This document shows positions 6,081 through 62,469 of a stretch of DNA of 64,000 nt, in pieces (positions within the stretch are counted from its first letter, which is position 1; the number at the start of each line of letters is the position of its first letter). The stretch covers positions 1,343,274-1,407,273 of the forward strand of contig ML992508.1 of the NCBI GenBank assembly GCA_010093995.1. The letters are read 5' to 3'. Both the position numbers and the translations under genes were made by a program. Origin of the DNA: Elsinoe ampelina. Its lineage: Eukaryota. The notes beneath the pieces are model-generated. The model worked only from the letters and a program-made list of their open reading frames with translations. It had not been told where the DNA came from and did no database searches.

Positions 6081-6331
6081 ATCCAGCCTTGGCGATATCC
6101 CCCGTTGCCAACGACGTCAGCACATGCGCAGGTCACCTCAACGCTGTGCTCAGCACTCCCAACCAAGATCAACAAGCGTTCAGGTGTGGCATATAAGACC
6201 GCTGAAGTAGCCAAAATGCATTTCCCTTTCTCTCATCTCGATCTGTCCCGTCCCAACTTCCCCCTCCTCAGATTCCGGCTATGTACAATCCTCTACGTTC
6301 CCATCCCCTCCCCTCCACCAGCCCCAGCCAT

Positions 6332-7119
6332 CTACGTATACGTATGCGCCTGAATCGCAATCTCAGCAATAGTCCACGTCTTCCCCCCATCAGCAGTGAC
6401 CATAGTCCCCGTCGCCCCCGTCGTGCCCTTTGTCCGAATATAGTTCGGATCCGCCTTATCCATGATCAGTTTCGTGTCGATGTACTTGTGTGCCGGCGCG
6501 GTTCCGCAGGCTGAGGATTGGCATTCTACGGACGTGCCCCAGCCGAGAGCTTTGCCGCTGGTGGTGGAGAGGCGGGAGACGACGGCGCCGTTGAGGGAGA
6601 CGGTTTGGTCGTACTTGCGGGTGGAGTCGTTGTATTTGTCTTTGGAGGTTCAGTGGGGTTGGGAATGGGGAGTTGGGTGGCGGGAGAGGGGCAAGGGAAA
6701 GGGTGAGGAGACGTGTGGGGAGAACATGGGAGGGTGAGGGACGTACAGTGCATTGTCACCTTTGATCCTGCGGAGGCTGGCACGGCGGTGCCCATTTTTT
6801 GCGTATCCTGGAGCGTGCTGGTTACGATACACCACTGGCCTGTAGCGGCGACGCAGCCTGCTGTTCCACCGGCGACGGAGATGGCGAGAGCTTGAATCAG
6901 TTGGTTCTCGCTAGTCCCCATTCCCGCCCACAGAGAGAGGTTGCCCTTTTGTGGTTTGTTGGTGGCGGGGAGGACGAGGGTGGTGGTGGCCTCGCGGATG
7001 AAGGAGCCGCTGGCTGTCGGACCGGTGGAGAGGGCGTTTGAGAAATGCCAGCCGTAGTCACCTCGAGCCAAGGCGAGGGAAGCGGCTGTCAGGAGGAGGA
7101 TAGAGCTGGTGGACTTCAT
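6332..7119 (-). CDS. Small secreted beta-rich protein, possibly a divergent G1 (eqolisin)/concanavalin-A-fold peptidase; intron 6640-6746
   Basis: Signal peptide MKSTSSILLLTAASLALA. Exon 2 reads YKYNDSTRKYDQTVSLNG...GWGTSVECQSSACG...DGGKTWTIAEI to TAG at 6332-6334. TATA-like run near 7188-7195. Confidence 0.85.
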
Positions 7120-7390
7120 GGCTGCGGATGAAGATGTGCAGAGGTGAATGTGGTGGGCTTGGAGCAAATGGAAATGAAGGAGTGACTATATATACTACCG
7201 GAGTACACTAATAGGAAGAGATAGTAATTAGAAGGCTCTAGGGACGGTCAAGGGCATGATATACACATTTTAATAGGGTTTTGTATGCAGCGAAAAGACA
7301 AACGACGAAAGAAGCCTTGTTTCCCGTCGAGAGATGCATGTCCCGCAGGGGCATAGCTCCCCAAAGCCAAGTTTCGAAGCTTGTTTAGTA

Positions 7391-11218: not shown

Positions 11219-12772
11219 TGTAAGACAGGACTATTGTATTTGTGCGTCACGAACAAGCGTACAGGGCAGGATACAAGTGCTGTTACGGCAGATGAATACA
11301 ATACAAAGACGGCAACATGCGTAGCGTGCGTGAATCTTTATTCTGCGTCTCCTCTGTACGCTGTATCTCCATGACCATGTCCACCATGTCCACCATGTCC
11401 AACCAGACGGCAGTCTGATCCGAACACAAACAGACCCACAATATACAGCTCACTTGCATTCTCCGAGCAGGGTTCGCAGATCACAAACGTCAGTCGAGAT
11501 CAGATCGGTTATCCCTGCCATACAGATCACAGAAATTGAAAGTCGTCTCACGCACACAGCACCCTCTGTGCGCACCGTGGCACGAGCAACACAATGTGAC
11601 AGTAAACGGATGCACTGCACTGCAGTAGGCGTGTCGCACCAAATGGCCGGGCTGCATATCGCTGCATGCTATGCTCCCCAGGACGCACGAAGGATGAAAG
11701 TCTAACCCTTTCATTTTTTTTGATTGTCCCAGACAGACGCAGGCACTGCGCGAAGGATTGCGCGTGGCAGGCACAGCGAGGGGAGTCGGTCATGGGCGTG
11801 GCATGTGGCATACCGACGACGTGGCGTTGGAAATAGGGCAAGGCGGAGGTGATAGAGTAATAAGCGATTGCGACTAAGGACTTGGGGCTATATCGAGATC
11901 AAGGCAGAGAATGTAACTCTACTCCAGCTGTTTTTCCCGCAACCAGGCCAATTGGCAAGCAGATTGTAGAACGACAGACGCCAGCCGGACGAGTGTCGTG
12001 GCTTGTCATGGCGTCTTTATTAGATTGGGAGCCCTCTCTCGGTCCAGCGAAGATCCCTGGGACGGGACGGTCTTCCGAACAATCTCTCGACCACAACCAA
12101 TCAGAACCGACGATCTTGCGGTTGTTGGTTCGTGCGATTGCTGCATCTTGACGTAGAGAGTCGCTCTGCCGGGGCGGACGCTAGCGGACAAGCAGGCGTG
12201 TGCGATGCGCCAGACGAGGACTCGTCAACGGTGATGCATGGAGAAGGCTGGGATTGAGGGGGAGAAAGAAACATGCGAGTTTGAGCGCGTGGAAGAAAAA
12301 TGAAGGAGCAAAATGGCTTGCATGTCTTCCACGAGCAAAAGAAAAGCACACTCGCACGACTCAATCAATTTGCAGCATCCCAGCCCGACGGGTCCCCGGG
12401 CCCGATCTCATCAATCGCGCACGCAGATCGCTGCTGTTTTTGGGTCCTTCGAGGTCGTGACCCCTGTCCGCCCTGTCGAATCCTTCCATTTCCTCCACTC
12501 ATGATTTCATCGGCCCAGAGCAGCGTTGGTGGGCGTCAATGGCTGGCTCCTGGCTCCCTCTCCTCGCCCCGAGAGACTCTTGATCGCTGCTGGGCGTGCA
12601 TGGCCGAACTGTCGACGTGCATGCGACCCTCCCACCACACAGCGAGCTGAGCCAGATAGGTAAAAAGGGTTTTCTCTTCTTCCATGTCCCTGTTCCTGAC
12701 TACATCTCTTCCTCCATCCCCACGACCTGCAGGTGAAGTCGTACTGCAGTCTTGAATTGTGGTACTGGTGTC

Positions 12773-14609
12773 ATGGCGATTTTCAACAAGTATCTCGGCT
12801 TTAGAGGCCGTTCACTCACCGCCGCCATCACCCTTTGCTCTGGTTTGATCTTCATGTGAGTTTCGTCCTTGAAACGCGGCGCCTGTCATCGTTGCTAGAC
12901 TACCAGAGGACGTCGACTGACGCATGACAGCGCCTTTGGCTATGGGCAGGCAGATATTGGTGGCCTCGCGACTGTCGAGAGCTTCAGGCAGTACTTTCCG
13001 GAGATCGACTATGTCGGCACCTTGGAGAGTGCCAGTCCCAGTTCTCAGATAGCGATCGAGCATGGTCAGTCATATCTCCCGTCCCATATTGACCTCACTG
13101 ACATCTCATTCAGGCGTTGTCGTCGCGACTTGGAACATTGGTTGCTTTGCTTCTGCCCTTCTCACCGTCTTCATCGGCGACAAGCTCGGCCGTCGCGGTA
13201 CTCTGATGCTAGGTATCACCATTCTAGGCATCGGCAAGATTATCCAAGCCGCGTCCTACTCTTACCCGCAGTACATCGTGGGTCGCTTCGTCGCCGGCCT
13301 GGGCAATGGCTTCAACGCCTCCACCGCCCCCGCCTGGCAAGCCGAATGCACCAAAGCCCACCGCCGCGGCCGTATGCTCATGGTCTCCTCCGGCGCCTGC
13401 ATCGCCCTCGGCGTCGCCATCGCCTACTGGGTCGACTTCGGCATGGCCTGGGTCCAACCCAACGCAGCAAGCTGGCGCTTCCCCATCGCATGTCAAATCC
13501 TCTTCGTCCTCCCCGTCTTCTTCCTCCTCCCGCACCTCCCGGAATCCCCCCGATGGCTCATCCTCAAAGGCCGCGAAAACGAAGCCCTCGACGTCCTCTC
13601 GGCCCTCAACGACCTCCACCCCACCCACCAAGACGTCCGCGCCGAATTCCTCCAAGTCAAAGACGCCATCCTGCAAATGGCCTCGGGCTCCCCCAAAGAA
13701 GCCTTCACAATGAACGAATACCGCTACCTCCACCGCGTCATCCTCGCCGTCGCCCTGCAATGCATGCAGCAGTTCACCGGCATCAACCTCTTCATCCAGT
13801 ACCTCGCCGAAATGTTCCTCGGCCAAGCCAACCTCGAGCCCTGGATCGCCCGGCTGCTCGCGGCCGCCGCATCCACCGAATTCTTCGCCATCTCCTTCGT
13901 GTCCGTCATCGGCATCGACCGCTTCTGGGGCCGCCGCACCCTCACCATCTTCGGCGCGACAGGCATGGCCGCGACCATGATCGCCCTCGCGGCGGCCAAA
14001 TTCGTCGACTCGGACGCCGCGAGGGTCGTCGTGGCCGTGTGCATGTTCGTCTTCATCTCCTTCTTCGCCGTCGGCTGGCAGGGCATGGCCTGGCTGTGGG
14101 CCGTGGAACTCATCCCTCTGCCCGTGCGGGGGCCCGCCAACGCCCTCGCCACGTCCGCCAATTGGCTGTCCAACTTCGTCGTCGTGCTGGTCGCCCCGTT
14201 GGCTTTTGCCACTATAGGGTGGCGCACGTACGTCGTTTTCGCCGTCACGAACGCCGTCATCGCCCCGGTCATTTACTTCTTCTACCCGGAGACTGGCTGC
14301 CGCAGTCTGGAGGAGGTGGATGTTTTGTTCCATGTCGCGGCCAGGACGGGTCATCCGTGGTGGAGCGTCAGGGATGTCGCGGTGGCGGAACCGTTGTGGT
14401 ATGGTAAGAATGGGAGGAAGCCGTTTGCTTATGAGCAGAGTGAGTGGCACATGCGGTTCGCGAGGTTGAGTAGTGAGGAGGAGAGCGGGAGTGGGTCGGG
14501 AGGGTTTGGGAGTGATGATGGGGGGATGAGGGAGAAGGAGGGGAGTAGAGATCGGGATGAGGGGAGGGGGGATGGGATGGGCAGGGGAAGGGGGAGGGAG
14601 TATGCTTAG
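12773..14609 (+). CDS. MFS sugar porter (STL1-like); introns ~12856-12930 and 13065-13113
   Basis: Sugar-porter motifs GDKLGRR, GRFVAGLG, PESPRWL, QQFTGIN, DRFWGRR, PETGCRSLEE. N-terminal exons read MAIFNKYLGFRGRSL...FGYGQADIGG. Confidence 0.93.
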
Positions 14610-14801
14610 TGTAATTTGACAGAGGACGAGGGATGGGGAGGAGATGGAAGAGACGATTTGCCATGTCACGTGCGATGATATCATGTACCAATAATCTCTG
14701 GAACAGTGTATAAAATGAGTATTCATTAAGCATCAGGTGCTGCTCGCTATGCTTGTGACCACGAAATCATCACCCCTGCATGATTCAAGAATCGAAAGTC
14801 T

Positions 14802-16833
14802 TCATTCCTGCATCGCCTCCCCCACCACCTCCTTCCCTTCTCCCACCCCATTCACCCCTCCCACCTTCTGCGACAAGGGCTCCACCCACCTCCGGAAGAC
14901 ACACATAATGCCCACCTCGCCCGTCGCTACGCACCACTTGCCGCAATTCGACCACGCCACCTGTCTGACCGTGAAGTTATACTTTGGGACTGTGATGGTA
15001 TGATGCGGGTGCAATGGACGAAAGGCGTCGCCCACGTCAAATCTGCTTTCTTTGGCTTTTTGTTGCGTCGATTTACCTCGGGCTTTCTTTTTTGGGCTGG
15101 GTTTGGCTCGACCAGCTGTGATGGTGGGAGTGGCGGATCCTTCGTGGCCGTTGGCTGCTGGTGTGTTGCGGCCTTCGGAGGGGGCGATGCTGGGTGTTTT
15201 TGTGCCCATCGATGGGGTATCTTCGGTGATAGTGGGTGCTTCGTCGTCGCTGTGATCTTCTTCGTTGTCTTCGTTTGCTGTCTCGTAGTCGTCACGGTCG
15301 GTCTCGTTGCCTGCCCCTGGCGTGCTGTCTTTTGTGGTCGAGACGGACGTATCCCTCTTCAGCGGCCCTCGTCGTGGCCGATATCCTCCACGCTTCTTTT
15401 TGTACTTCCTCGGCCCGCTCGGCTCAGCAGACATATCAGACTCCCTTTCAAGAGCATAGAGATCCCAAAAGGAGAATCGAGACTTTTCGTTGCCCATGAC
15501 CAGGATTGGGTGATAGTCCGGTCGATCGAAAAGCGAGAAGCGCATGTAGAATGGTGAACTGTTTGGCATGTCGAACGTCAAGAGTCGCTGGAATCGTCCC
15601 CCGAATGCCGAACGTGTTGATTTACCAAGTTCAGGCATGGGGGGCTTGTCAGGGACAGGTGCCGCCGAAGAGAAGCCATCTATCTTCCACAGTAGAATGC
15701 TATTGTTCTTGTGCTTGTCGTCCATGGTGGTGAATGCAGCGTGTGAGAATATGAGGTCTCCGTGAAATCGCAGACAGTCAACGTAGTCCGAATGGACTTC
15801 TGTACTGCTGAAGAGTGGGAAGTATATACGGTCTACCTTGTCTGACCCAGCGAATCTACCTGGCACCTCGGGGACAGCCCACATGTTGATCATGGTATCT
15901 GTGCCTCCAGACAGTAGATAGGCGCCCCGGGAATGGAATGCCTGGGGGTCCTGTCAGCAATGCCGTTGAGGATGGACTGCGCGGCTCACAATTGCAAGCA
16001 CTGACTGCTTGTGGGCGTCTGGACTGGCGAGTATCGCTGCGCATGGTTGTTTGGACAAGGTTGGATCCAAGTTCCATATTCGGATACTATAGTCTGCCGA
16101 AGCTGAGGCGAGAATGTTTGGAGAGAGTGGTGAGATGGCCAAATCATTGATGGCTCCACCGTGTCCAGTCAAATTCTGCACAGCGTAAGCTAGCTTGGCC
16201 GTGATGTCGCCGGACCGCACTTACCCTCACGAATTCATCCTTGACAACGTTGACAATCTTGATATTCCCTGCTCCAGCACCGCCAAAGCAGATGAGGGGA
16301 TCGCCGGTCTGCAAGTCCTGCGACCATACAAGGCTGTTCAGGGAAGCATCTGGCTGCGATGACTGTCAGCTCACAGTGGGATTGCTGCAAAAATGTCGGT
16401 ATCACCTGGGGATCGCGAAAGGCGCGGAGCATCTCAACAGGATCCTTTGGGTCTGCGGATGGGCGATAGACATAGACCTGGCCCAGTCAGTCACAAGCAT
16501 CACGCGAGTAAGTGTGTTGAGCACATACATCGCGTGCGGCGACCACGGCGAAAACTGGATCCTCATCGGGTTGGGTGTAGGGATAAAACTTGACATCGTA
16601 AATGCTTGCCTGTATATTGTTGTGATAGACAGGTGGCAGAGGGGTGTTCTCATCGACGACAGCTTCCTGGTCGTCGTCATCGGCGATGATGAAGCGTTTC
16701 TGGCTCTTTTTCTTTGGTGTGTTGGCCTATTATGGTCAGTCATTGCACAATGCGTGTAGGATGAACTTGTGCTGACCTGTGAAGCAAGCCTTGTTATGGC
16801 ATGCAGAACAGGGAATTGGCCGGTGGGGAGCAT
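14802..16833 (-). CDS. eed: Polycomb PRC2 WD40 subunit EED/ESC; five short introns
   Basis: Spliced YDVKFYPY...PVFAVV, GHGGAINDLAISP...LASASADYSIRIWNL, VHSDYVDCLRFHGDLIFS, FYMRFSLF and VRQVAWSNCGKWCV. The start codon choice is less certain. Confidence 0.88.
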
Positions 16834-48829: not shown

Positions 48830-48838
48830 ATTGGTGGA
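48830..48838 (-). promoter_or_regulatory. GARE (galacturonic acid-responsive element) TCCACCAAT
   Basis: Exact match to TCCNCCAAT, ~237 bp upstream of the dehydratase ATG. CreA-type SYGGRG sites lie at 48743-48748, 48755-48760 and 48762-48767. Confidence 0.7.
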
Positions 48839-49634
48839 ACTATTGCCTGTCTCTGTCGGAGCGGCTTTTGACTCTGGTCGTCGCCTTTTGGGTGACCTTC
48901 TTGCGGGCTCTTCACACGCGGACGCGATACGTGTTTCGGGAGGTGGGTGGTCACTGAGAGTCAGGAAATTGATTGTTCCGCTTGGTTGGTCACGTCGTCG
49001 GCGTGGTTTCGCCGAGTGATCTGGGTGCTTGTCTGGCTGCTAGCGAGGCTTGTTTGGGTTCGTGGAACGATGAAGAGGCTTGATTGTGCTGTACATGAGG
49101 CGGTTCAGAGAGGTGAGTTTTTGATGCACGGCTGTTCGTGGTGAGATGGTATCTCGTTGTCCTTTTAATCCCGCAAAGTATTTCTCCGTCGTCTTGTGCC
49201 AACTTTTTACCTCTTACCTGCTAATACACAATCCTCACGGATGCTCTTATGCGACTAGATCTTGGAAGCCAACGGGTAATTCTCCAAGGGCCTGTTCGTG
49301 GGCAAGCGTGACGACGTAAAGACATGCTGTGTTCGAGAAATATAGGGAAGTATGCCCAGAAGAAGCTATGCAAGCGAAGACGCTATGCCCAAAGGCGTTA
49401 TCGACCGTGGGCAAAGCCCTGAGCAGACCCAAGACTCAACCCCGCTATTTTCCGGCTGTTCTTATCACGTCTTGCCTATCTGTAACATCACGAGTTTCTT
49501 GAGACCAGTATTTGCACGACAGCATTGTTTAGACGTCGACTTCGAAGCGTTAGACACTGACCGGCCATCTTACCGATCATGATGCCTGCTCTCTGCCGAG
49601 TTGAGCAGACAAGACGATCGCCTTGTCCGAAATC

Positions 49635-51809: not shown

Positions 51810-52300
51810 TACGAACCTTCGAGATTGGGAATTTAATGAGGTTTGCACTTTCGCTGTACTACTACTTCAAGTTTGCAAACGCTTTTCTGCTGGCGCAAAT
51901 TGAACCACCGTATCCTGTACAATTAGTAAGGCCAGTGTGTGCATCGCATAGCAATTGCTACTAAACTCAACATATATTCGTGCGTAATCCTGCATGAAGC
52001 GATATATTCAAGTGATAGAAGCCGAAATGCAGTCGTTGCCCGGCCAACGACACGCGATTGGCTGAAGGCGACCACTTTCTATCCCACGTTCGAGAGCAAT
52101 CGATCGCAGATAGCTGATGAGCAATTACGTTTTGCTCGTCGAGTCCGAATCAACGAACAACCTACTTACATGATAGCAAATCTACCCGAGTCACTCATCA
52201 CATTATATCGACCTCGATCCCTTGGAGGCGAACGTTCCAGCCGTGCCGGTCACGGACTGCCCGCAATCATCATCCCCAACTGTCGCAAAAACACATTGAA

Positions 52301-53527
52301 ATGGCCACTTCCACTGCATGGACTTGGTCGGATGCAGATTTGCTACGTCCGTCAAGGAAGAGCTATCATTGCTTGGGACAGCCAGTCACTCCGCTGCCTG
52401 GATCTCGGAAGGTGTCGGGCAAAAGGAAGCGGTCGAGCACACACGCGGTGGAGGATCATCCATTGAAGTCTTCGCCTGCGCCGGTCTACAGGAAGCTGCA
52501 AATCCCTAGGATTGTGACACCGAGCTCTGAAGCAGTGAGTCCTGCTCCACTGGTCAACGAGAGCTACCAGGTCGCCGCCGGATTTGACACGCCTGGCATG
52601 ACCACCGCGGTCGGGAACATGAATATTCGAGATACTCCGGAGCTCAACGACTTTCGATCGACGTGGGAGACTTCAAATACAGATGGAATAGCTCAAGGTC
52701 CAGAAGTGATAGCAAGAGAAGGGAATGGCCGGACAAGGATATCCCAGGACAAGCCAGCGCGGCAAGCAGGATGGACAACATCAGCCTTTGGCATCTTCGG
52801 TGGTGTCGCAGGCAAAGTCATCAGCATGTGCTACAGCATGATTCCCATCTTTGCCTCAACCAGTGCCCTTCCCGAGCAGGACTTTGATCTCTGGCACCAA
52901 TCAGCAACGCCTCTCCCCGGCATGTTCCCCGAAGACGCCTCAGCAGAAGTAGACGACACCCCAATCCGACCCGCCAAAAGACTCCACCTCAGCCCCGTCA
53001 ACGACTGGGTAATGGTAGAAGAAACCACTCCCGAATCCTCCACCCACCCGGCATCCAATGCCCCCCGCCCCGCCTCCCGCGCCAGCACCCGCCGCTCCCT
53101 CGCCCCCCGCTCCCGCAAACCCAGCTCCATCTCCCACCCCTCGCCATCCCTCCCCACCCCACCCCTACCCCACCACACCCACACCCGCCGCGCCTCCCTC
53201 GCATCCCCGCGCTGCTCCTCCCCCCGCACCCTCCGCCCGCGCACATCGCTCCACCCGCGGCGCTCAATTCAAGACCTACGCACCACGACACCGGAGCGGG
53301 ACTCACTGTCCCCCGAAGCCCATGCCCTGCTGCATAGACGGGACAAGAAGGAGCGGGATGCGGAGAAGAGTATGCGGAAGATGAGTCGGCAGGTGCAGGA
53401 GTTGATACGGCAGGGCCAAAGGGCGTTGGGGGAGGGGTGGAAGATGGAGTTTGATGAGGAGGGGGCAGGGGGGTATGGGAAGGGAGAGGGAGAGTGGGAT
53501 GAGGGGGTGGGGATGGAGATGGAGTGA
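52301..53527 (+). CDS. Hypothetical low-complexity protein with a C-terminal coiled coil
   Basis: 408-aa ATG-initiated ORF filling the intergenic space. Ser/Pro/Arg-rich, ending in MSRQVQELIRQGQRALG. Confidence 0.7.
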   Translation: MATSTAWTWSDADLLRPSRKSYHCLGQPVTPLPGSRKVSGKRKRSSTHAVEDHPLKSSPAPVYRKLQIPRIVTPSSEAVSPAPLVNESYQVAAGFDTPGMTTAVGNMNIRDTPELNDFRSTWETSNTDGIAQGPEVIAREGNGRTRISQDKPARQAGWTTSAFGIFGGVAGKVISMCYSMIPIFASTSALPEQDFDLWHQSATPLPGMFPEDASAEVDDTPIRPAKRLHLSPVNDWVMVEETTPESSTHPASNAPRPASRASTRRSLAPRSRKPSSISHPSPSLPTPPLPHHTHTRRASLASPRCSSPRTLRPRTSLHPRRSIQDLRTTTPERDSLSPEAHALLHRRDKKERDAEKSMRKMSRQVQELIRQGQRALGEGWKMEFDEEGAGGYGKGEGEWDEGVGMEME

Positions 53528-53681
53528 TCCTCGAGCCGGTGGGTGATGGTGGAAGGGTGGTGGTGTGGGTATGTGTGTATATATGAAGTTGGAACAGGGG
53601 GAGGGTGGGAGATACCCTTGTACATATGAATGTCGATTTCATTGTCTAGTTTCCTTTGTGATAGGGTGACGTGGTAGTGGG

Positions 53682-55400
53682 TCAATTCAACCCGAATTCT
53701 TCGCTCCAGAACAGCACGTCTCGACCTCTCGCGACGTGGGCGCTGACGTCGGTTCGGACTTTGGTGCCCATGCCTGCTGGACCGCAGACGTAGATGCCGG
53801 TCTTCTCGGTAGCGGAGTGGGCGAAGGTTTGGTCTATAAGACGACGGAGATTGGGGCGACCTGAGCGGGGAGTAGTGAGCGTGCCATTGGTTTGTGAAGA
53901 AGACTTGTTGGTGAGAAGGGATTGCATCTCTACGCTTTCGTCTTCTTGCTCGGCCGTTTCGTCGCCGTGCTGTGGCACATCGTCCTGAGTAGTCGCTGTG
54001 TTGGGAGGGGCGTTTTGAGTGGAAGAAGAGCCGAGTCCGGTGATGAAGATAGTGAGGTGGGCCTCTAAAGCGTCCTTCTCGCTGTCTTTGAGGCCGTCGA
54101 AGATCCAGTCTACTTCGTCCATAGACTTGACTGCCCAGATGGCTTCGACTTTGGTTCGCCGTTGGTGTTGACCGGAGATGAGTTCCCTGAGCAGAGGAAG
54201 AATGAAAGTCATGCCCACTCCGCCTGCGATCATCAAGACTCGATCACACTCGAGTAGTTGCTCCAAGTGATCCCCCCTCCCATATGGTCCCTCGATCTTG
54301 ACCGTCCTCGTCTCTTCCCTTTTACCCTTGCCCTCGACCAAGTTCTTCGTATGGCCACGCATAACTCTCACCACGCATCTCACTCTTCCATCCCTCTCAA
54401 CACTAGCAATACTGAATGGGTTCCTCCCTACCGCCGTCGGCAGACTCCCTCCCTTCCCGAGTGACAAGTACAAGTGCTGTCCCGGCCTGCACCCCTTCCA
54501 ACTCCCCCTCTCGACACTAATCTCCACCAACCCGTCCCCTTTCCCCCTCACCAACGCCGCCACCTCCCTCGTCTCCCACGCCCTCAGCCCCACCCCCAAA
54601 ACCCACACCACCGCCGCCTCACCAACAAACACCCTCACATGACTCACATGCGCCCACATGACCGGCAAAACCACCAATCCCACCACCACATGCACAACCA
54701 CAAACACCGCATACCACCTCTCCCTCACCCACCTCACCGCGCCCCCTCCCATAACCGCAAACAACCCCACCCCCACCAACCCCATCAGCACATCCCAATC
54801 CCCGACCCTCTTCCTCAACACCCCCACCCGCACGAAAAAGTTCAAATACAACCCGGCATGCGCGCCCAACCCCACCACCACCACCCGTCCCAACGCCCGA
54901 TGCACGGCGTTCAACCCCGTCCAATGGCCCCCGGTCGCCAACACGAGAGGATTCCACCCGCTCTTCCACGCGAGGAGGTACTGCCACGGCAACTGGCTGG
55001 CGGCGACGATGCCCACCCGTTTCGTGAGGTGGAGGTAGTCCTCCCCCGTCTCGGCGACGCTCAGGTAGAGCAGGACGAGGGTCCAGACGAGGGTCGATAG
55101 GGCTAGGGCGTTGGTGCCGAGGTGCAGGCCGAGGGGGCGCGGGGCGGGGGATGTGAGCCAGAATTTGGCGGGAGGGGGAGGGAGGAGGGAGGGGCGTGAG
55201 GGGGGAGGGGGTTTGAGGTGCGGGGAGGAGGGGCGGGGGGCGTGCGGGCGGAGGGAGGGGAGGAGGATGGGCAGGTGGTGTGTGAGGGATAGGAGGAGGA
55301 GGGGGATGAGGGGGAGGAGGTGGGCGGTGAGGGAGTAGGAGTCGAGGAGGTGCCGGCGGGTGGCTTTTTCCGAGGAGGTGAGGTCGATGAAGCGCCACAT
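53682..55400 (-). CDS. Ferric reductase-like transmembrane flavocytochrome
   Basis: Heme His pairs (HRALGR...HAGLY; HVVV...H), FAD-binding NPFSIAS, NADPH-binding IEGPYG and IAGGVGMTF, and YVCGP...EEFG. Confidence 0.9.
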   Translation of the reverse strand: MWRFIDLTSSEKATRRHLLDSYSLTAHLLPLIPLLLLSLTHHLPILLPSLRPHAPRPSSPHLKPPPPSRPSLLPPPPAKFWLTSPAPRPLGLHLGTNALALSTLVWTLVLLYLSVAETGEDYLHLTKRVGIVAASQLPWQYLLAWKSGWNPLVLATGGHWTGLNAVHRALGRVVVVGLGAHAGLYLNFFVRVGVLRKRVGDWDVLMGLVGVGLFAVMGGGAVRWVRERWYAVFVVVHVVVGLVVLPVMWAHVSHVRVFVGEAAVVWVLGVGLRAWETREVAALVRGKGDGLVEISVERGSWKGCRPGQHLYLSLGKGGSLPTAVGRNPFSIASVERDGRVRCVVRVMRGHTKNLVEGKGKREETRTVKIEGPYGRGDHLEQLLECDRVLMIAGGVGMTFILPLLRELISGQHQRRTKVEAIWAVKSMDEVDWIFDGLKDSEKDALEAHLTIFITGLGSSSTQNAPPNTATTQDDVPQHGDETAEQEDESVEMQSLLTNKSSSQTNGTLTTPRSGRPNLRRLIDQTFAHSATEKTGIYVCGPAGMGTKVRTDVSAHVARGRDVLFWSEEFGLN

Positions 55401-55900
55401 TTTGAGACGGGATGGGGGTGTGTTTCGAGGGTTGGGGATGTTACAGGTGTGTGGATGGGGTGTTTGACATTTTGGATGATGGCGTCGTTGAGTTTCTGGT
55501 TTGTTTGATGGGGAGAGGAATGGTCTGGATGGAGAATGGTGAGGCTGAGGTGGCGTGAAGTGAGGGCTGACCAATCCTGAGGACAACACGCGGAGATTCC
55601 GTGCGGCTGAATGAAGCTTTGAGGACGCGGTGACGACGAGCACTTTGATACACCAGGTCTGCATACAAGAGCTCTGAATACAAGAAACTGATGAGAATCA
55701 TAGTCTGATAGTCTGGCAGTCACGGATGAATTGTCATGATTTTCTCAAGTATTGAATTCACCAAAGCTACGATCAAGAAACGAAGGGTATAGTCGCTTTT
55801 CGCAATACACGAGCCTTTTCCACACTTTCTGCGTGCTACGACTCTTGAAGGTCGACTCCAACAGTCTGTCTCGACCCTGTATGCCTTCTCTTCGCCCAAT

Positions 55901-56606
55901 CTACGCACCACCAGCACGCTGGATCTGCTGAGCCAAGAATGACACAGCGGCGTTCGCATCAGTGCCGTAGGTCAAGTGAGCCGGACCAACGACCAAAGTA
56001 CCGCTGCAGACGAGATCTCCAGCGTTACAAAAGATCTTGGTCTGCTGGGGAGGGTAGTTGGGGATACGGCCACGATCCTGAGTGTTCCTGGTGTCGCCGA
56101 AAGTGACGGCGCCGACGATGCGGTTGCGGGTGGCGGCGTCGAGCTCCTCCACGGCTTGGTGGGTGGCGGCGGCGCCCTGGCTGTAGCCTCCGACGACGAT
56201 CTTGGTTTGAGGACACTTGCGGGCGGCTTCGCTGATCTTGGCCTTCATGTCGCGGATACCGACGGGGTCGGCACCGTTGGGGAGGGCGTTGGTGTCGAGA
56301 CGGGCTGGGTAGTCGACGCCTTGGACGGCGGTGCCGAAGCGGCGCTTGAGGCCCTCGCCGACTGGGGGCCCGATGATGCTGCCCTGGGTGGAGTTAGATT
56401 TGGTATCTGCGCTGCTCGTGGGGAACGCTGACCATGTTGCCGGCCTCGGTAGAGCCACGGGCGAAGATGAAGGTGACTGGCTGGCAGGCACCACGCAGTT
56501 CGTTGGAGGTAGTACCGACACGGCCACCGAGTTGGCGTTCGATGAGCTCGGCAGGAGCAGCAGCGGCGAGGCCAGCCAGGGCCGCGGTAGCGATGGTGAA
56601 CTTCAT
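55901..56606 (-). CDS. Secreted cutinase (CE5); 49-nt intron 56384-56432
   Basis: Signal peptide, [38 protein letters not shown] and AHLTY (Ser-Asp-His triad). Confidence 0.96.
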
Positions 56607-56764
56607 TTTTGGGATGGAAAGAGTGTCTGACCTGTCAAAGGTGCTCAACGGGAAAAGTGAATGGAACCGTGAATGAATGAATGGAGCTGGTGTCTGGCAG
56701 GATCAAGGAGCTTCGTGGACGCAGTACTTATACAGTGATGTCTAGGGTCTTCACAACTGTGATG

Positions 56765-58137
56765 CCTCGGTCTATAACATGAGGGACATGCGAGGGATAC
56801 GAGGTTCACGTCGCAAAGCATCTTGACCGCGATTGTGCTTGGATGAAACCAACATGAGGGTCTGTTGTAAGCCTGGCATCGACCATCATTCGGTCAGAAG
56901 TGGTCTGCCTCGGCCGGGAGGACTGGAAGACTTGGTGAGCAGAGGGGACTCTACCATGAACCCTGGAACGCATGATCAGCTTTGCATGAATGTAGCTGGG
57001 TCGAACAGGGAGGAGCGGCCACGCCACTGCCAAGTATGCAGGAGTAGATGGGATGGATAGAAAAGTACCGAGGCCAGCGGTGGTGTAGTGCGGGCAAAGA
57101 CCTTCCCGGCGGTCAGATGATATGAATGAGGAAGTGGAGCATGAGTTAGCAAGTCGAAGTGGTGTTGATGAAACAGAGCCAAGGCTTGGCCAGAGGGATG
57201 TTTGAAATCTGGACCGCGAGGAAATCGATGTGTTGGACCATTGGGGTATGGCTAGTGCCGGTCATATATTGATGTGCCGTCTGACAGATGGGGATCGGGG
57301 AATTAAGTTGCCCATACTGACCAGGCTTGCACAGAAGTGCTTCCGAGGTATTATTTTGAGCCGCAAAGGCATCTCCCTCACGCAAGATCCTGTTGTAATT
57401 ACAAGACTCGGCGGCACAACGAGGAAATGAACTGGACATTATTGCAACTGGGATCAAGCCGAGGAAAACCTTCTATCAACGTTACCTGGCGTATTTTGTG
57501 ACGCGTTTCGCGAGCTGTACCCTGGTCGGCGCGGAAGGAGTTGGAGAGCATGGGGTTCGTCCGAAGCGTCTGAAACGCCGCGCCTCATGGCTGGATAGCG
57601 ACAGGGATGATAAGACAAGCGGCTGGCGACGCATCCAACAGGGTGTAGAAGCTCCAAAGCCCAGCGGGCAACATATCGACAGCGATCTGGACGCTGTTCA
57701 GCTCAAGTTCTGTACTATGCCATAGACGTATCGGCTTCACGCATGAGATGTACCGTAGTCGAGGAACACGATAGTGAGTCCTGCGCCATGCATGGAGCTT
57801 GGTAGGTGACAAGCTCGTGCTACAAGTCTTGTTGGCAGCGGCAATGCAGATCTGAGACCAAAAGCGCCATTGGTGGCTGATGTGGAGAGTGGGATGTGCA
57901 ACAACCGGAACCTTTGGTACGTAGAAGAGGTCGTCAGCAAAGTTCCGAGGAACAGAAAGAAGCCCTGAACGCCGCGCGCCGACCCCGGACGTTCCTCCGA
58001 CAAGGTTTCCGCCGATTCCGGTGCCGTTCCTAGATCTCTCGTTCCTGCAGAAAGAGGGCATCACACTTTACATCATCTGTGTCATCTCGGCGCGGAAGTC
58101 GTTGAATGAATTTGTTATACTACGTCTGCAGCCTCGG
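56765..58137. promoter_or_regulatory. Cluster of seven CCTCGG/CCGAGG (CTF1/FarA-type) sites upstream of the cutinase
   Basis: Hexamers at 56765, 56908, 57068, 57343, 57459, 57945 and 58132. TATA-like TATAAGTA on the minus strand at 56725-56732. Confidence 0.65.
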
Positions 58138-58315
58138 TCGTATATTTTCATCTAATTGTATGAGGGGTCCGCATTGGCTGAAGCTGGCACAGGGACGGAT
58201 CACTGATCACGAGGTATGGGCAATTGAATGCTTTGAAGAAGTCAGGGCATTAATTATACTACATTTTCCATGAAGCGGTAGTGTCTCTTTTCACGTGGTA
58301 TCATATCGTGAGCGC

Positions 58316-58707
58316 TCACGCGTCAACATCCTTCAGCTTCTCCTTGGCGGCCTGCTTGCCAGCCTCGGTGACCTTGTGGTCGTTGTCGTCAGGGTTGTTG
58401 ATGGCACTGGAGTATGTCAGTGGAATGGTCAGGTTGGGCGTATCAACAACGAGTACTCACGCCTTCAAGCCACCAGCGACGTTGCCTGGGTTGCCATCGG
58501 CCTTGCCCTCTCCAGTCTTGCCGTAGAAGGCATCCTCACCACCGAGCTCCTTGAGAGCCTGCCTGGACTTCTCCTTGCTGGCCTCGGAGGTGTCTTGGTA
58601 ACGTCAGAACTGGATGCTGTGAACTTGTGAGTCCACTCACTTGGGTTGCTCAAGTTGGCCTTGTGGCCAGTGGCGGCGTGGGAAATGTCCTCTGGTGTGT
58701 TCTGCAT
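58316..58707 (-). CDS. Conidiation protein 6 (Con-6)-like small hydrophilic protein; two introns
   Basis: Spliced MQNTPEDISHAATGHKANLSNPNTSEASKEKSRQALKELGG...NPGNVAGGLKAAINNP...VTEAGKQAAKEKL contains two Con-6-like repeats. Confidence 0.85.
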
Positions 58708-59570
58708 GGTTGCTGGTTGATGGGATGTGGGAATGTTGATTGTTGACGATTGATAGAAGTGTAAGGATATACAGGAATCAACTCCGAGATTACCTTATAA
58801 AGAGATGGACTCACAAGTCGTTTACTGCAAATGACAAACGCTGCATGACGAGACTTGTCTTGTTCCTGGTTGCTGTGGTCGTCATTATTGCGATTGAGCT
58901 ATGTCACACGAGAAGCGTGGCTGCCCGTGGCTGTCCGTGGCTGTCTCTCCCCGGCACGATGCGATGGGTTCATCTCTGATTTTGTCTGCCATTTCATCTC
59001 TGATCGATCTGAACAAATCAGTTGGTCAAATCGAGGTTCCAGGTTGGTCCCAGGCATAAGAAAAGAAAACTGTATCCAGGTTCCTGGACACATGTAACCT
59101 GATCACCGCGACCACATGACATTCCTGTAGGCCTCATAACTTCCTGTAGGCCCTGCCAGCTCGGAAAAGCGCCCCTGACGGTCTGACCAAGTTTTTGTTC
59201 TGTTACCCCCACCGGCCCGTGGGCTCAGCCCTGTGTTTCCCCTCTTTTTTTTTTTTTTTTACCCGGCCATCCAGGTACGGATTTTCAACGACATGCCGTT
59301 TATTATGGCGACCTCCTTCCTCCGGCGTCACATGGCCCGAGCCCTACGACAATCTCGTTCGCAGTGGGTATAGTCAGTCATATACCACCGTGTTTCCCAT
59401 GATAATCCCCCGCTGAACCCCGCTTTCCCGACAACAGCAGTAATGTCGACATGTTGGCCAAGGGAACGAATTTATCCAGTCATCTAGGTACGTGACTATA
59501 AGTATGTCTTGCCGCAACAAGAGCCGCGTGGTAGGTTCGGTGGGAATTGAGAAGCTCTACAATACAGCTC

Positions 59571-62249
59571 ATGATGCTCTTCTTGTCACCGCGATTGCCT
59601 CGGCTATTGGCCGCCTGTGCCGTACTGACCAATGTCGCTAGAGGTGCGGCCGTCTCAGTTCCAGCTGGACGCGAAAGAATAAGCATCAATGCCGATTGGA
59701 AGTTCTGGCGCTCCGAAACAAACCCAGATGGTATCATCTACGATCAACGCCCTGACCTGGCAAACCTTGGGAACGTCACAATCCTGAAGCCATGGATCTT
59801 GCCATCCGGCAACGACTTCATAGCCGACCCAGCTAAGCGCTACGAACGCCCACCAGGTAACCCAGGCGGCAACCTTAGCTATGTGCAGGCTTCTTTTGAT
59901 GACAGTTCTTGGGAGTCGGTCACTCTACCCCATGACTGGGCTATCAAAGGTCCCTTTTACGTCGGAGATCCAGTACCTGTTGGTGGAGGTATGGGCCGTC
60001 TGCCAGTTCAAGGTGTTGGATGGTACCGTCGGACCCTGACCAAGACTGCTGAAGATGACGGAAGATCCATCTATCTCGACATCGATGGTGCCATGTCCTA
60101 TGCCATGGTGTGGTTGAACGGCAATCTGGCAGGAGGCTGGCCATACGGATACAACTCCTTCCGTCTCGATCTTACACCATATCTGCAGATTGGCGACAAC
60201 AACCAGCTGGCCATCCGACTTGACAACCCCGTCGAGTCAGCCCGATGGTATCCCGGTGCTGGGTTGTACCGTAGTGTCTGGTTGTCCAAGGTCGACCCAG
60301 TCCACGTCGGGCAATGGGGGACGACGGTCACCACCAGAGACGTATCATCAGAATCTGCGACCATCGATTTGATCGTGGAAGTACAGAACACCGCCGATAT
60401 TGACAGGACCGTCGATGCCGTCACTGAGGTCTACATCTACAATGCCGAAACTGGTCAGCCTACGGACAAGGTTGGAGACTTCCCCCGCTCGTCTGTCAGC
60501 ATACTCGCCGGAAGCAAGACTGCATCGAACACTACCACGACGATTGAGAATCCTCGGCTGTGGGGACCAGTCCCACAACAAGAGCCCAACCAGTATGTCG
60601 CTGTGACAAAGCTGTTATCTGGAGACCGAGAGATTGATACCTATTCAACACGATTCGGTATCAGGTCTCTCGTCTTCGACCCCGATAACGGATTGCAAGT
60701 CAACGGGCAGCGAATCCAACTTCAAGGTGTCAACGAGCACCACGATCTCGGTGCTATCGGTGCCGCATTCAACGTCAGGGCAGCTGAACGCAAGCTCGAA
60801 ATCCTTCGTGACATGGGCGTCAACGGCATCCGCATGGCCCACAACCCTCCCGCCACCGAACTCCTCGAACTTACCGACCGCATGGGCTTCCTCGTCATCG
60901 ACGAAATATTCGACTCCTGGGAACGCAACAAGACCGCCAACGACTTCTACCTCATCTTCCCCGACTGGCACGAACAAGACCTCCGCGCCTTCATCCGCCG
61001 CGACCGCAACCACCCCTCCATCATCTCCTGGTCCTACGGCAACGAAGTCGGCGAGCAACAAACCGGGGCCCCCGGCGCCGCGCTCTCCTCCGCCCTCAAA
61101 ACCATCCTCCACTCCGAAGACGCCACCCGCCCGGCTTCCGCCTCCATGAACTTCGCCATGCCCAACATGACCTTCCCCACCACCGTCGACATCATCAACC
61201 TCAACTACCAAGGCTCCGGCATCCGCGACACGAACCCCTACTCCAACCTCGCCGGCATAATCCGCTCCCCGCAATACCCGGCCTTCCACTCCGCCTTCCC
61301 CTCCAAACTCATCCTCTCCTCCGAAACCGCCTCCACCCTCTCCACGCGCGGCACCTTCCTCTTCCCCGTGACCCCCGCCCTCTCGGCCCCCGCCAACGCC
61401 TCCTCAGGCGAAAACACCACCGCCCAGACCGTCTCGTCCCACGACCTGTACACGGCCGCCTTCGGCTCTTCCCCGGACAAAGTCTTCCTGCGCCAGGACG
61501 CCGCCGCGCCCTACGTCGCCGGCGAGTTCGTCTGGACAGGCTTCGACTACCTCGGGGAGCCCACGCCTTTCTACACCGCCAGGTCGAGCTACTCGGGCAT
61601 CGTGGATCTGGCGGGCTTCCCGAAGGATAGGTTCTACCTGTACCAGGCGCGGTGGAGGCCGGGGTTGCGGTTCGCGCATGTGCTCCCCCATTGGAACTGG
61701 AGGGGGAGGAGGGAGGGGCTGGTCACGCCGGTTCATGTGTATAGCAGTGCGGATGAGGCCGAGGTGTGGGTTAATGGCGTGAGTCAGGGGAGGCAGAGGA
61801 AGGCGGAGGGCGTGTATCGGTTTAGGTTCGATGAGGTGGTGTATGTGCCTGGGCAAGTGAGGGTTCAGACGTGGAAGGGAGGGGAGGAGTGGGCGGATGC
61901 AGTGGTGGAGACGACGGGGGAGGCGAGGGGGTTGAGGGTGGGCGTGGACCGGGAGGAGATCAAGGGGGATGGAGTGGATTTGGGGTATGTTACTGTCGAG
62001 GTGGTGGATGAGGAGGGGAGGAGGGTGCCGGATGCTGGGGGAGAGGTGACGTTTGAGGTGGAGGGCGGGGAGTTGGTGGCGACTGATAATGGGGATCCGG
62101 CGGATTTGAGAGCGTTTCCGGAGAAGACGAGGAATGCGTATTCCGGGTTGGTGTTGGGAATTGTGAGGAGTGGGGAGAAGGGGATGGTGAAGGTGAGGGT
62201 AAATGCGCCTGGTCTGGAGGGGGCGGAGGTAGACATTACAGCGACTTGA
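59571..62249 (+). CDS. Secreted glycoside hydrolase family 2 (beta-galactosidase-like), intronless
   Basis: Signal peptide, VTLPHDWAI, GWYRR, RWYPGAGLYR, GVNEHHDLGA, RMAHNPP, RDRNHPSIISWSYGNE and WTGFDYLGEP. Confidence 0.95.
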   Translation: MMLFLSPRLPRLLAACAVLTNVARGAAVSVPAGRERISINADWKFWRSETNPDGIIYDQRPDLANLGNVTILKPWILPSGNDFIADPAKRYERPPGNPGGNLSYVQASFDDSSWESVTLPHDWAIKGPFYVGDPVPVGGGMGRLPVQGVGWYRRTLTKTAEDDGRSIYLDIDGAMSYAMVWLNGNLAGGWPYGYNSFRLDLTPYLQIGDNNQLAIRLDNPVESARWYPGAGLYRSVWLSKVDPVHVGQWGTTVTTRDVSSESATIDLIVEVQNTADIDRTVDAVTEVYIYNAETGQPTDKVGDFPRSSVSILAGSKTASNTTTTIENPRLWGPVPQQEPNQYVAVTKLLSGDREIDTYSTRFGIRSLVFDPDNGLQVNGQRIQLQGVNEHHDLGAIGAAFNVRAAERKLEILRDMGVNGIRMAHNPPATELLELTDRMGFLVIDEIFDSWERNKTANDFYLIFPDWHEQDLRAFIRRDRNHPSIISWSYGNEVGEQQTGAPGAALSSALKTILHSEDATRPASASMNFAMPNMTFPTTVDIINLNYQGSGIRDTNPYSNLAGIIRSPQYPAFHSAFPSKLILSSETASTLSTRGTFLFPVTPALSAPANASSGENTTAQTVSSHDLYTAAFGSSPDKVFLRQDAAAPYVAGEFVWTGFDYLGEPTPFYTARSSYSGIVDLAGFPKDRFYLYQARWRPGLRFAHVLPHWNWRGRREGLVTPVHVYSSADEAEVWVNGVSQGRQRKAEGVYRFRFDEVVYVPGQVRVQTWKGGEEWADAVVETTGEARGLRVGVDREEIKGDGVDLGYVTVEVVDEEGRRVPDAGGEVTFEVEGGELVATDNGDPADLRAFPEKTRNAYSGLVLGIVRSGEKGMVKVRVNAPGLEGAEVDITAT

Positions 62250-62469
62250 TGAGGGATACTTTGCTGAGGACGACTTACGCAGGTGATGAGGAGAGAAGCA
62301 TGCTAGCTTGCATTCATGAGCTCGTGATTTCCAAGGTTACATTACTATACAGTGTGAGATCGACAGAGATGATCTGCCATCTATCATCGACCGTTGAGAA
62401 GAGTGCCAGATATGCTGTTTAAGCTCCCACGCTATGCACTTCAAGTGCCACCTTTCCATCTGCATCCCA

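Follow-up and report, generated by a model that had tools for sequence, protein, structure and literature searches.

The window analysed here, a stretch of 64,000 nucleotides of contig ML992508.1 of Elsinoe ampelina, carries short domains in which the plus strand turns from C-rich to G-rich, hereafter called dipoles. When GC skew was computed in 200-nt windows over positions 3601-64000, |GC skew| exceeded 0.4 in 10.6% and 0.6 in 4.1% of them; in fully shuffled sequence, 0% exceeded 0.4 and the maximum |GC skew| was 0.36. Flips were called as minima of the cumulative skew with at least 60 excess bases required per side, and 12 C-to-G flips were obtained at this threshold, compared with 2-3 in 20 within-2-kb-block shuffles. 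Eight of the 12 were strong dipoles, in which the excess of C on the left and that of G on the right both reached 100 bases or more (centres 6461, 14287, 21483, 41164, 48103, 53327, 54969 and 61580), and four were weaker (8538, 10442, 24147 and 32637). The first-pass annotation of this DNA had listed ten centres; eight of them corresponded to the strong dipoles, whereas those at 15000 and 40200 proved to be single strong arms with a weak partner. The base counts given there by hand were exact (37 C and 5 G at 54541-54600; 44 G and 5 C at 55201-55260), but its remark that the rest of the window was unskewed was not quite right, in view of the four weaker flips and a general 3′-end skew trend in most genes.

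The first dipole, D1 (6114-7324, flip at 6461), was C-rich at 6114-6460 and G-rich at 6462-6857, with weaker G to 7324 (excess of 107 C and 178 G), and covered a small gene on the minus strand (CDS about 7120-6526, putative intron 6641-6745) that has a signal-peptide-like start, together with DNA past its stop, across from the 3′ end of the SF1/BBP gene. D2 (13423-14771, flip at 14287; C-rich 13423-13819 and more weakly to 14282, G-rich 14283-14771; excess 183 C and 143 G) lay within a plus-strand sugar-transporter gene (stop 14609), and its G arm comprised the final 326 nt of the CDS and 162 nt past it. The single C-rich arm at 14665-15016 reads as G-rich on the sense strand of gene 15953-14802 (minus strand), of which it takes in the final 214 nt and 137 nt past the stop. 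D3 (20903-22100, flip at 21483; C-rich 20903-21482, G-rich 21484-22100; excess 177 C and 212 G) was located at the 3′ end of a gene for a PFF1-type vacuolar protease on the minus strand (stop 21295), with a sense-G arm made of the final 198 nt of the CDS and 392 nt past it. A single G-rich arm at 40186-40671 spanned the final 262 nt of the Mot1 CDS and 223 nt of 3′ UTR; the last exon of Mot1 is at 40140-40448, and the C-rich stretch preceding this arm was merely weak. D4 (40610-42024, flip at 41164; C-rich 40610-41163, G-rich 41165-42024; excess 162 C and 225 G) occupied the 3′ part of the gene for the ankyrin-DHHC palmitoyltransferase Akr1 on the minus strand (stop 40793).

Further along, a moderate single G-rich arm (46515-46905, maximum skew 0.54) marked the 3′ end of a PWI-domain gene on the plus strand (stop 46891). 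D5 (47561-48584, flip at 48103; C-rich 47561-48102, G-rich 48104-48584; excess 172 C and 131 G) lay in the 5′ two-thirds of a minus-strand enolase-superfamily gene (CDS about 48595-47062). D6 (52881-53720, flip at 53327; C-rich 52881-53326, G-rich 53328-53720; excess 172 C and 186 G) covered the 3′ end of the plus-strand ORF 52121-53527, a gene for which no family match was found, and the spacer ahead of the ferric-reductase stop. D7, the strongest (54194-55672, flip at 54969; C-rich 54194-54968, G-rich 54970-55672; excess 271 C and 238 G), extended over the 5′ UTR of the ferric-reductase gene (minus strand, CDS 55400-53685) and its first ~1200 nt. D8 (60818-62374, flip at 61580; C-rich 60818-61579, G-rich 61581-62374; excess 231 C and 247 G) fell within the 3′ half of the glycoside-hydrolase-2 (GH2) gene on the plus strand (stop 62249), where codon choice changed from C-ending to G-ending inside about 100-200 nt. 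RNA contigs ended at D8 between 62334 and 62456, and a contig starting at 62090, within the final 160 nt of the GH2 CDS, continued past 62900 into a transcription-factor gene; the convergent GH2 and transcription-factor transcripts thus overlap.

The mean dipole profile was symmetric, with skew of -0.58 at -300 nt and +0.62 at +200 nt, faded out by about ±700-900 nt and had its GC maximum of 0.65 at the centre. Units measured about 1.2-1.6 kb, with centres ~7 kb apart, and no common motif was found at the centres. The pattern had been described as self-reverse-complementary; this is true of composition only: the four dipoles tested yielded inverted matches that were short, imperfect and of low complexity, but no true inverted repeats. 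An artefact or structural accident, be it an assembly error, a palindrome or inversion breakpoints joining segments of opposite skew, has next to no probability as the origin of the dipoles. RNA-derived contigs of other studies have the same sequence as the window, and those of four runs over 43000-62900 (89 of 90 records at ≥99%) pass through D5 and D8; these runs are distinct from two others that may themselves be a source of this DNA. ORFs remain open across the flips and colinear with orthologues in the alignments, and the tested dipoles hold no true inverted repeats. Within the reach of these sequence comparisons, the artefact reading was rejected.

It is clear from the 4-fold degenerate sites that the skew persists, and is strongest, where the protein is unaffected, the favoured base reaching 0.62-0.79 on either gene strand. 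In C arms, plus-strand C made up 0.79 of these sites in plus genes (n=320) and 0.64 in minus genes (n=321); in G arms, plus-strand G made up 0.62 (n=255) and 0.70 (n=444), respectively, and background sites in plus genes had 0.33 C and 0.21 G. The skew also continued through RNA-verified introns and UTRs. It was -0.64 in the intron 47651-47700 and +0.48 in 48414-48542, both in D5 arms, and +0.76 in the putative D1 intron 6640-6746. The intronic skew of the first-pass annotation was therefore borne out (its 48414-48470 is the start of the second D5 intron), as was that of the intergenic stretches 21060-21290 (-0.69) and 40450-40620 (+0.57). Non-coding DNA in G arms consisted of G 0.41, T 0.25, A 0.21 and C 0.12, and C arms were the mirror image; G+T versus C+A is the mark classically left on a strand that is exposed or not transcribed. 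GC in the arms was 0.78-0.90 at 4-fold sites versus 0.53-0.54 in non-coding DNA, which counts against a purely neutral mutational bias, as this should give similar compositions. Amino-acid composition was altered by the dipole skew, and protein divergence in the arms was no higher than elsewhere in the same proteins, which gives no sign of a mutation rate much raised locally.

Bidirectional replication origins, whose leading strands would be G-rich in both directions, would also leave G+T versus C+A in non-coding DNA, because this is what an exposed lagging-strand template gives, and the C-rich-then-G-rich sign is that of bacterial and some yeast origins. However, the skew is gone 700-900 nt from the centre instead of extending over a replicon, the eight centres in 60 kb would require an origin every ~7 kb, and the centres share no motif, lie inside conserved coding sequence and are placed by transcript polarity and 3′ ends. 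We therefore regard the origin reading as very improbable.

On the mRNA-sense strand, the order within dipoles was always C-rich, then G-rich. Among 22 genes (the uncertain ORFs 11334-12650, 16205-16863, 18012-18599, 28768-29157 and 56806-58800 being omitted), mean sense skew from stop-300 to stop+150 was +0.163, compared with 0.003±0.038 in a circular-shift null, and was matched by 0 of 5000 shifts; six genes exceeded +0.3, versus a null mean of 1.31 and a null maximum of 5. In the upstream block, from stop-900 to stop-300, mean sense skew was -0.059, and 363 of 5000 shifts were as low. Ten of the 12 sense-G-rich segments (|skew| > 0.4) straddled or directly followed a stop codon, ending 14-412 nt past it, and none was found at a gene 5′ end. 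Two of the eight dipoles, those of the ferric-reductase and enolase-like genes, were in the 5′ part of the gene; here the CDS was unskewed or skewed the other way for about 500 nt ahead of the stop, and the sense-G arms of D7 and D5 stopped 512 nt and 499 nt short of it. The skew had been called independent of gene orientation, which is true as regards strand; position along the transcript, in contrast, does matter and largely explains the skew, counting against the first-pass reading.

Dipole centres were on average 518 nt from a convergent-pair stop versus 2601 nt in the null (51 of 10000 shifts), and were not close to tandem stops or to starts; all seven convergent junctions had a dipole centre at most 1.4 kb away. 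A strong sense-G 3′ arm was present in 9 of 14 convergent-pair genes versus 1 of 8 tandem genes (Fisher one-sided 0.026), but no difference was obtained between the two classes with a continuous measure (Mann-Whitney 0.19; 22 genes). For Mot1/Akr1 and for the sugar transporter and gene 14802, each partner had its own sense-G 3′ arm, giving a G-to-C flip in the spacer that one symmetric centre does not predict.

Such an arrangement might have been selected, the dipoles functioning as terminators or insulators that work in both directions where convergent genes are packed closely together: polymerase arriving from either side would transcribe C-rich and then G-rich RNA and would stop once an R-loop or G-quadruplex had formed in the far arm. 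The link to convergent pairs, with 154-930 nt from stop to stop, agrees with this, as do the overlap of convergent transcripts at GH2 and the conservation of position within the genus; selection on exonic RNA could also account for a larger effect at 4-fold sites than in introns and UTRs. All 16 plus-strand G-quadruplex-type motifs fell in G-rich arms, and motifs of this type occurred only in arms, above phase-preserving shuffles (15 vs 5.2±2.1; 11 vs 6.1±2.2). On the other hand, G and C runs were as frequent as composition predicts (181 vs 196±9; 203 vs 191±8), dipole RNA showed no consistent gain in folding stability over block shuffles (z = -1.25, -2.63, -0.08 and -0.79), and the second base in G arms is T, not A, which fits mutational asymmetry better than selected purine-rich RNA:DNA hybrids. 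A terminator would moreover be harmful in the 5′ half of a gene, where two dipoles lie, and selection of this kind appears quite unlikely. R-loop or G-quadruplex sites as such, which the first-pass annotation had proposed, would be compatible with the stop-anchored sense-G segments and with the motifs in the G-rich arms.

The amino-acid-implied skew of the ferric reductase was -0.41/+0.35, and its dipole was visible in protein composition in five of five Elsinoe-group sequences (the window protein and four orthologues) and in neither of two outgroups. The sugar-transporter 3′ arm was +0.40 in the window, +0.23 to +0.31 in four relatives and about +0.1 in three of four outgroups. Judged from these protein sequences, conservation across the genus holds for at least one dipole.

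Recombination or DSB hotspots, also proposed in the first-pass annotation, were neither supported nor rejected overall. In this reading the dipoles would be fixed hotspots of meiotic breaks or gene conversion, where resection, repair synthesis and heteroduplex correction would act on opposite strands either side of a break and, with GC-biased conversion, leave a GC peak and a C-to-G sign change. The symmetric mean shape with its central GC peak, the balanced arms, the high GC of 4-fold sites (up to 0.78-0.90) and a scale that suits resection or conversion tracts fit it. Centres anchored with polarity to transcript 3′ ends, two convergent pairs with a separate 3′ arm per gene, arm non-coding DNA without raised GC and the lack of a centre motif do not. 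Strand-asymmetric mutation is documented at human break sites, with C>N and A>N on the 3′-overhang strand (PMC7615360); this predicts G-rich left and C-rich right, the sign opposite to that of the Elsinoe dipoles, although repair-synthesis errors on the strand running away from the break could yield the observed one. For the Dothideomycete Zymoseptoria, PMC5844332 describes GC-biased conversion as weak or absent and contrasts its hotspots with the conserved ones of Saccharomyces, which sits poorly with a genus-wide ferric-reductase dipole. Hotspots are an unlikely cause.

We lean modestly towards the dipoles being the gene-polar GC skew known from fungi in an extreme and localized form, probably arising from transcription-coupled asymmetry in the termination zone. 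In this Elsinoe genome the gene-polar bias is compressed into the units described above, C(+A)-rich then G(+T)-rich on the mRNA-sense strand, with the G(+T) block usually ending tens to about 400 nt past the stop, and the strongest units adjoin closely apposed convergent gene pairs. A strand-asymmetric mutation or repair bias may be at work: RNA polymerase II slowing, possibly with R-loops, would expose the non-template (sense) strand, which would drift to G and secondarily T through A-to-G, C-to-T and C-to-G changes, and G-richness could promote more R-loops in a self-reinforcing state. The adjoining C-rich block, whose explanation is the least secure step, might reflect the same process on the opposite strand, with antisense or read-through polymerases coming from the convergent neighbour as its driver, or else the upstream C-biased regime noted by McLean and Tirosh. 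The arm sizes are strikingly balanced, a feature that would not follow from a purely gene-polar model, and the 5′-located D5 and D7, the weak convergent link on the continuous measure and the small upstream sense skew (as low in 363 of 5000 shifts) also count against the gene-polar reading. In closely arranged human genes, 3′ GC skew is linked to R-loops and termination (PMC3787257). In fungal genes, a C bias of the coding strand upstream gives way to a G bias at the 3′ end, a pattern extending to 4-fold sites, UTRs and amino-acid usage in a data set that includes Dothideomycetes (PMC3315797). The C bias of that published pattern is at the 5′ end, whereas in the long genes GH2, PFF1 and Akr1 the C-rich block peaked beside the flip, 0.8-3 kb from the start codon.

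Strand composition in the window switches from C to G at short intervals, and the pattern is real and striking. The two 60-nt hand counts of the first-pass annotation were exact on recount, and absolute skew exceeded 0.4 in 10.6% of 200-nt windows, with extremes of up to ±0.85, as compared with none after shuffling. When flips were called from cumulative skew and at least 60 excess bases were required to either side, 12 C-to-G flips were obtained in the window versus 2-3 in 20 block shuffles. Eight flips were strong, with an excess of 107-271 C before the flip and of 131-247 G after it; they lie at 6461, 14287 (sugar transporter), 21483 (PFF1-type protease), 41164 (Akr1, an ankyrin-DHHC palmitoyltransferase), 48103 (enolase-like), 53327, 54969 (ferric reductase) and 61580 (GH2). 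Ten centres had been proposed at first pass; eight correspond to these strong flips, and the other two, 15000 and 40200, proved to be single strong arms. Each strong flip is the centre of a dipole, a unit of about 1.2-1.6 kb in which a C-rich arm of the plus strand is followed by a G-rich arm, and the paired arms are balanced in size. Averaged over the eight dipoles, skew was -0.58 at -300 nt and +0.62 at +200 nt and was back to about 0 by ±700-900 nt, with a GC maximum of 0.65 at the centre. Four dipoles were searched for palindromes or inverted repeats, and only matches of 14-34 nt (71-93%) were obtained, all low-complexity sequence at inconsistent offsets, so the likeness of the inverted arms is compositional only. 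An artefact or an inversion breakpoint was likewise rejected, since the ORFs are colinear with their orthologues and the RNA contigs are at least 99% alike.

The skew was retained when 4-fold degenerate sites were scored by their plus-strand base. In the C arms, C made up 0.79 of these sites in plus-strand genes (n=320) and 0.64 in minus-strand genes (n=321), and in the G arms G made up 0.62 (n=255) and 0.70 (n=444), respectively; the background was 0.33 C and 0.21 G in plus-strand genes (n=2724) and 0.36 G and 0.19 C in minus-strand genes (n=532). Within GH2, synonymous codons pass from C-ending to G-ending inside about 100-200 nt. Two RNA-verified introns within arms had skews of -0.64 and +0.48, and UTR and spacer segments within arms were skewed as well. 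Pooled non-coding DNA of the G arms consisted of G 0.41, T 0.25, A 0.21 and C 0.12, and that of the C arms was its mirror image, a G+T versus C+A asymmetry. The earlier claim that the skew runs through introns and intergenic DNA was borne out by intron and spacer composition, and, with the 4-fold counts, the skew is not the outcome of codon or protein selection. The ferric reductase protein (encoded at 53685-55400, minus strand) begins with a P/L/S-rich block, followed by a G/V/R-rich block.

The skew had also been described as independent of gene orientation, on the ground that it occurs in plus and minus genes. That argument carries little information because a C-to-G flip is the same on both strands, and the description is true of strand only: along the transcript, the arms are anchored to stop codons with polarity. 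For 22 genes with a defined stop, a list from which several uncertain ORFs were excluded, mean sense-strand skew from 300 nt before to 150 nt after the stop was +0.163, against a circular-shift null of 0.003±0.038 that reached the observed value in 0 of 5000 shifts. Sense skew over the last 300 nt was zero or above in 18 of the 22 genes, and in gene bodies it was mostly negative. Among 12 sense-G segments, that is, stretches G-rich on the gene's own mRNA-sense strand, ten straddled the stop codon or lay directly 3' of it, with ends 14-412 nt beyond, and none was found at a 5' end. The arm of GH2 runs to 62374, and RNA contigs stop at 62334-62456. Two dipoles, those of the ferric reductase and enolase-like genes, are located in the 5' part of their genes. 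Even at a distance of 1-3 kb from the start codon, the C-rich block adjoins the G-rich one, and in GH2, PFF1 and Akr1 the C-rich peak stands 200-400 nt ahead of the flip, far from the start. Sense-strand C-richness was observed upstream of several genes as well (e.g. 18064-18344, 34246-34498, 48918-49155 and 55401-55672).

The negative-to-positive direction of the flips is that of the skew jump at a replication origin, and origin footprints had been suggested for them. However, the jump at an origin is replicon-wide, whereas the flips of the window are intragenic, transcript-polar and of 1 kb scale; skew of one sign does not persist over a replicon, the flips are too dense, and they are anchored to stop codons with polarity and share no motif at their centres (nothing past CCTCCTC-type low complexity was found). 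The dipoles thus fail as origins on scale, density and transcript polarity, and local skew flips of this sort in compact fungal genomes are not to be taken for replication origins.

Dipole centres lay on average 518 nt from the stop of a convergent pair, against 2601 nt in the null (51 of 10000 shifts), and no closeness to tandem stops or to starts was found; all seven convergent junctions had a centre within 1.4 kb. A strong sense-G 3' arm was present in nine of 14 convergent and one of eight tandem genes of this single 64-kb window (Fisher one-sided, 0.026), but the continuous skew measure over the 22 genes of the same 64-kb window gave a Mann-Whitney value of 0.19, so the contrast is at most suggestive. 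Both in Mot1/Akr1 and in the sugar transporter with its minus-strand partner gene at 15953-14802, each partner has a sense-G 3' arm of its own, which places a G-to-C flip in the spacer, where a single symmetric centre predicts none. Dominance of read-through, by which the partner's transcription would impose C-richness, was ruled out in both pairs because each sense-G arm lies on the gene's own side of the spacer. A link between the dipoles and termination at the ends of convergent genes is probable, through a mechanism that we infer.

GC at the 4-fold sites of the arms reached 0.78-0.90, a rise which, together with the symmetric dipole shape, fits meiotic break or conversion hotspots, but in introns and UTRs of the same arms GC was 0.53-0.54, without any rise. 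In the available text of Hinch et al. 2023 (PMC7615360), human hotspots resemble the dipoles in that their strand asymmetry is symmetric, of kb scale and reversed in sign at the centre, and A>G, C>G and C>T on one strand resemble the classes implied in the window; their sign relative to the centre is opposite, however, as C>N and A>N fall on the strand ending 3' at the break, whereas the strand pointing 3' toward the dipole centre is the C-rich one. These are human data, and human hotspots are set by PRDM9 and have no tie to gene ends, unlike the dipoles, whose anchoring to transcript ends would be left to explain. For Zymoseptoria, the accessible part of PMC5844332 reports weak or absent biased conversion and hotspot patterns unlike the conserved ones of Saccharomyces. 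Taken together, we regard a hotspot origin of the dipoles as improbable.

Selection for two-way terminators is an attractive alternative, but the sequence of the arms offers little that a selected signal would add to composition. G and C runs equal composition, with no excess of either over it, quadruplex-type motifs are just modestly enriched over expectation, and dipole RNA folds no further than composition predicts, being not consistently lower than block shuffles (z = -1.25, -2.63, -0.08 and -0.79).

Conservation was measured on proteins, from the skew that the amino acids by themselves imply at codon positions 1 and 2. The ferric reductase of the window gave -0.41/+0.35, and a similar dipole was obtained in E. 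batatas, E. fawcettii, E. australis and Sphaceloma murrayae (five of five, including the window), as compared with +0.14/-0.02 and +0.09/-0.04 in two outgroups. The 3' arm of the sugar transporter had +0.40 in the window and +0.23 to +0.31 in four relatives; three of four outgroups had about +0.1 and the fourth +0.32. The GH2 signal was weak. On these protein comparisons, dipole position is old and shared throughout the genus. Faster protein divergence in the arms than in the rest of the same proteins was not found. Polarising substitutions from protein alignments and the codons of the window yielded 5-23 derived changes in each region, of which many were multi-step, too few for a usable spectrum; the sense-G arm of the ferric reductase had six, of which five were away from G and one was ambiguous.

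Since 2011, fungal genes have been known to carry, as a genome-wide average, GC skews of opposite sign at their two ends (McLean and Tirosh, PMC3315797). According to the available part of that paper, the polarity was found in most fungi examined, Dothideomycetes included; the coding strand is C-biased 5' and G-biased 3', the bias extends to 4-fold sites, UTRs, promoters and amino-acid usage, and differing mutational regimes along the transcript or adaptive C-avoidance were proposed. On three of the four features set out there, the window agrees with this family: the same polarity of the coding strand (+0.163, 0/5000), skew at degenerate sites as well as outside CDS, and amino-acid usage shifted in line with codon skew. 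It departs on the fourth, since the paper has the C bias strongest at the promoter and 5' end in a gradual three-regime profile, whereas long genes of the window carry the C-rich block beside the flip and change sign within about 100-200 nt. The skew here is local and very strong (favoured base 0.62-0.79 at 4-fold sites), a value given for the window by itself and not as a comparison of amplitude, the published profiles being genome-wide averages. Balanced arms, raised 4-fold GC and strongest cases at convergent pairs belong to the window and not to the pattern described in the accessible text. The best placement of the dipoles is within the transcription-polar GC skew already known from fungal genes, as an extreme and localized variant of it.

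Two other patterns cover parts of the picture. Ginno et al. 2013 (PMC3787257), in the available text, connect R-loops and termination with 3' GC skew in human genes that lie close together; that skew is co-oriented and positive around the transcript end, possibly starting inside the gene, and is enriched among close neighbours with a proposed role in termination, and the arms of the window share the position and orientation and may likewise favour close neighbours. The human enrichment is mainly among tandem genes and that of the window, suggestively, among convergent genes, no adjoining C-rich block is described in the part of the paper available, and R-loops in the window are putative. The C>G skew at start sites of plants and some fungi (Fujimori et al. 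2005, PMC555766), as far as its accessible text goes, resembles the sense-strand C-richness of promoters and 5' UTRs in the window; it covers only the 5'-located C-rich blocks (the dipoles at 48103, 54969 and 6461) and leaves the C-rich blocks deep in long genes and the G-rich arms unexplained. A non-exhaustive keyword search of the open-access literature found no paper on C-to-G dipoles of kb scale in Elsinoe or in any other filamentous fungus.

A more specific reading, which we hold to be doubtful, is that the dipoles are genus-conserved two-way zones of R-loop termination and insulation, placed in coding sequence at packed convergent ends, with effects on stopping and on codons and protein. 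A polymerase coming from either side would read C-rich and then G-rich RNA and stop in the far arm, and an associated strand-specific mutation or selection would suffice to flip synonymous codons from C-ending to G-ending in mid-gene and to reshape protein composition as well. The window in any case gives single-locus cases of skew strong enough for direct study: the 4-fold sites of a single exon change from about 0.79 C to about 0.62 G, the composition of the protein tracks the switch, the position holds throughout the genus, and the strongest cases stand beside convergent pairs. If the link with convergent termination proves general across the genome, genomes of the Elsinoe type would offer a natural system for asking whether strand-specific mutation is driven by R-loops of the termination zone or by antisense read-through, and to what extent such a bias can alter codon usage and the sequence of proteins.

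From 3.6 kb onward, the window is gene-dense filamentous-ascomycete DNA of 52-55% GC. The adjoining positions 1-3600 form a block of GC 0.11-0.25 with an N gap at 2183-2438, which resembles the margin of a region that is AT-rich and possibly RIP-degraded. ORFs matched the families SF1/BBP, Sec39, sugar transporter, PFF1-type protease, Mot1, ankyrin-DHHC palmitoyltransferase, ferric reductase, cutinase, GH2 glycosidase and several fungal transcription factors. Among named proteins, the nearest are those of Elsinoe, namely E. fawcettii for GH2 (84%) and E. batatas for the ferric reductase (83%) and the sugar transporter (94%). Against its E. fawcettii orthologue the ferric reductase had only 63% identity, as compared with 84% for GH2 and 88% for the sugar transporter, and a database search returned a 100% match for the GH2 protein but none for the ferric reductase protein.

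RNA-like contigs from four runs, taken as RNA because spliced GT..AG joints are present, cover 43000-62900 and are at least 99% alike in 89 of 90 records. They are assembled contigs without strand, ends or levels; several introns and transcript extents were confirmed by them, and their cover is thin or absent across 54952-55615. For a loose contig end at 53110, no match was found within the window. Over 19.9 kb, only three single-base differences separated the window from RNA contigs of other studies, A>C at 50181, G>C at 54489 and A>G at 56471; the one at 54489 sits in a C-rich arm, and the other runs have C there. In GH2, the GT..AG interval 59484-59637 is spliced out in RNA contigs of three runs, whereby ATG 59571, used by the database protein, would be lost, and another contig begins at 59580 within this interval. 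These contigs suggest an alternative 5' end or a retained intron, and the GH2 gene model may need revision. The transcripts of GH2 and the convergent minus-strand transcription-factor gene overlap, since the contig running into the latter begins at 62090, 380 nt beyond the stop of that gene and over the final 160 nt of the GH2 CDS.

The final exon of Mot1 is short (40140-40448) and is preceded by a 53-nt intron whose branch site is TACTAAC (window 40087-40448); a plain ORF scan truncates the gene by 360 nt. In the G-rich arm of the PFF1-type protease, a (GAG)n run at about 21516-21555 encodes a poly-serine tract of the C-terminal region, and low-complexity expansions seem to go along with skewed arms. 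Several frames of the skewed arms are free of stop codons on both strands, which produces many long overlapping spurious ORFs (13000-14800, 40700-42000, 47600-48600, 52800-55700 and 60600-62350, on both strands), a trap for ORF-based annotation.
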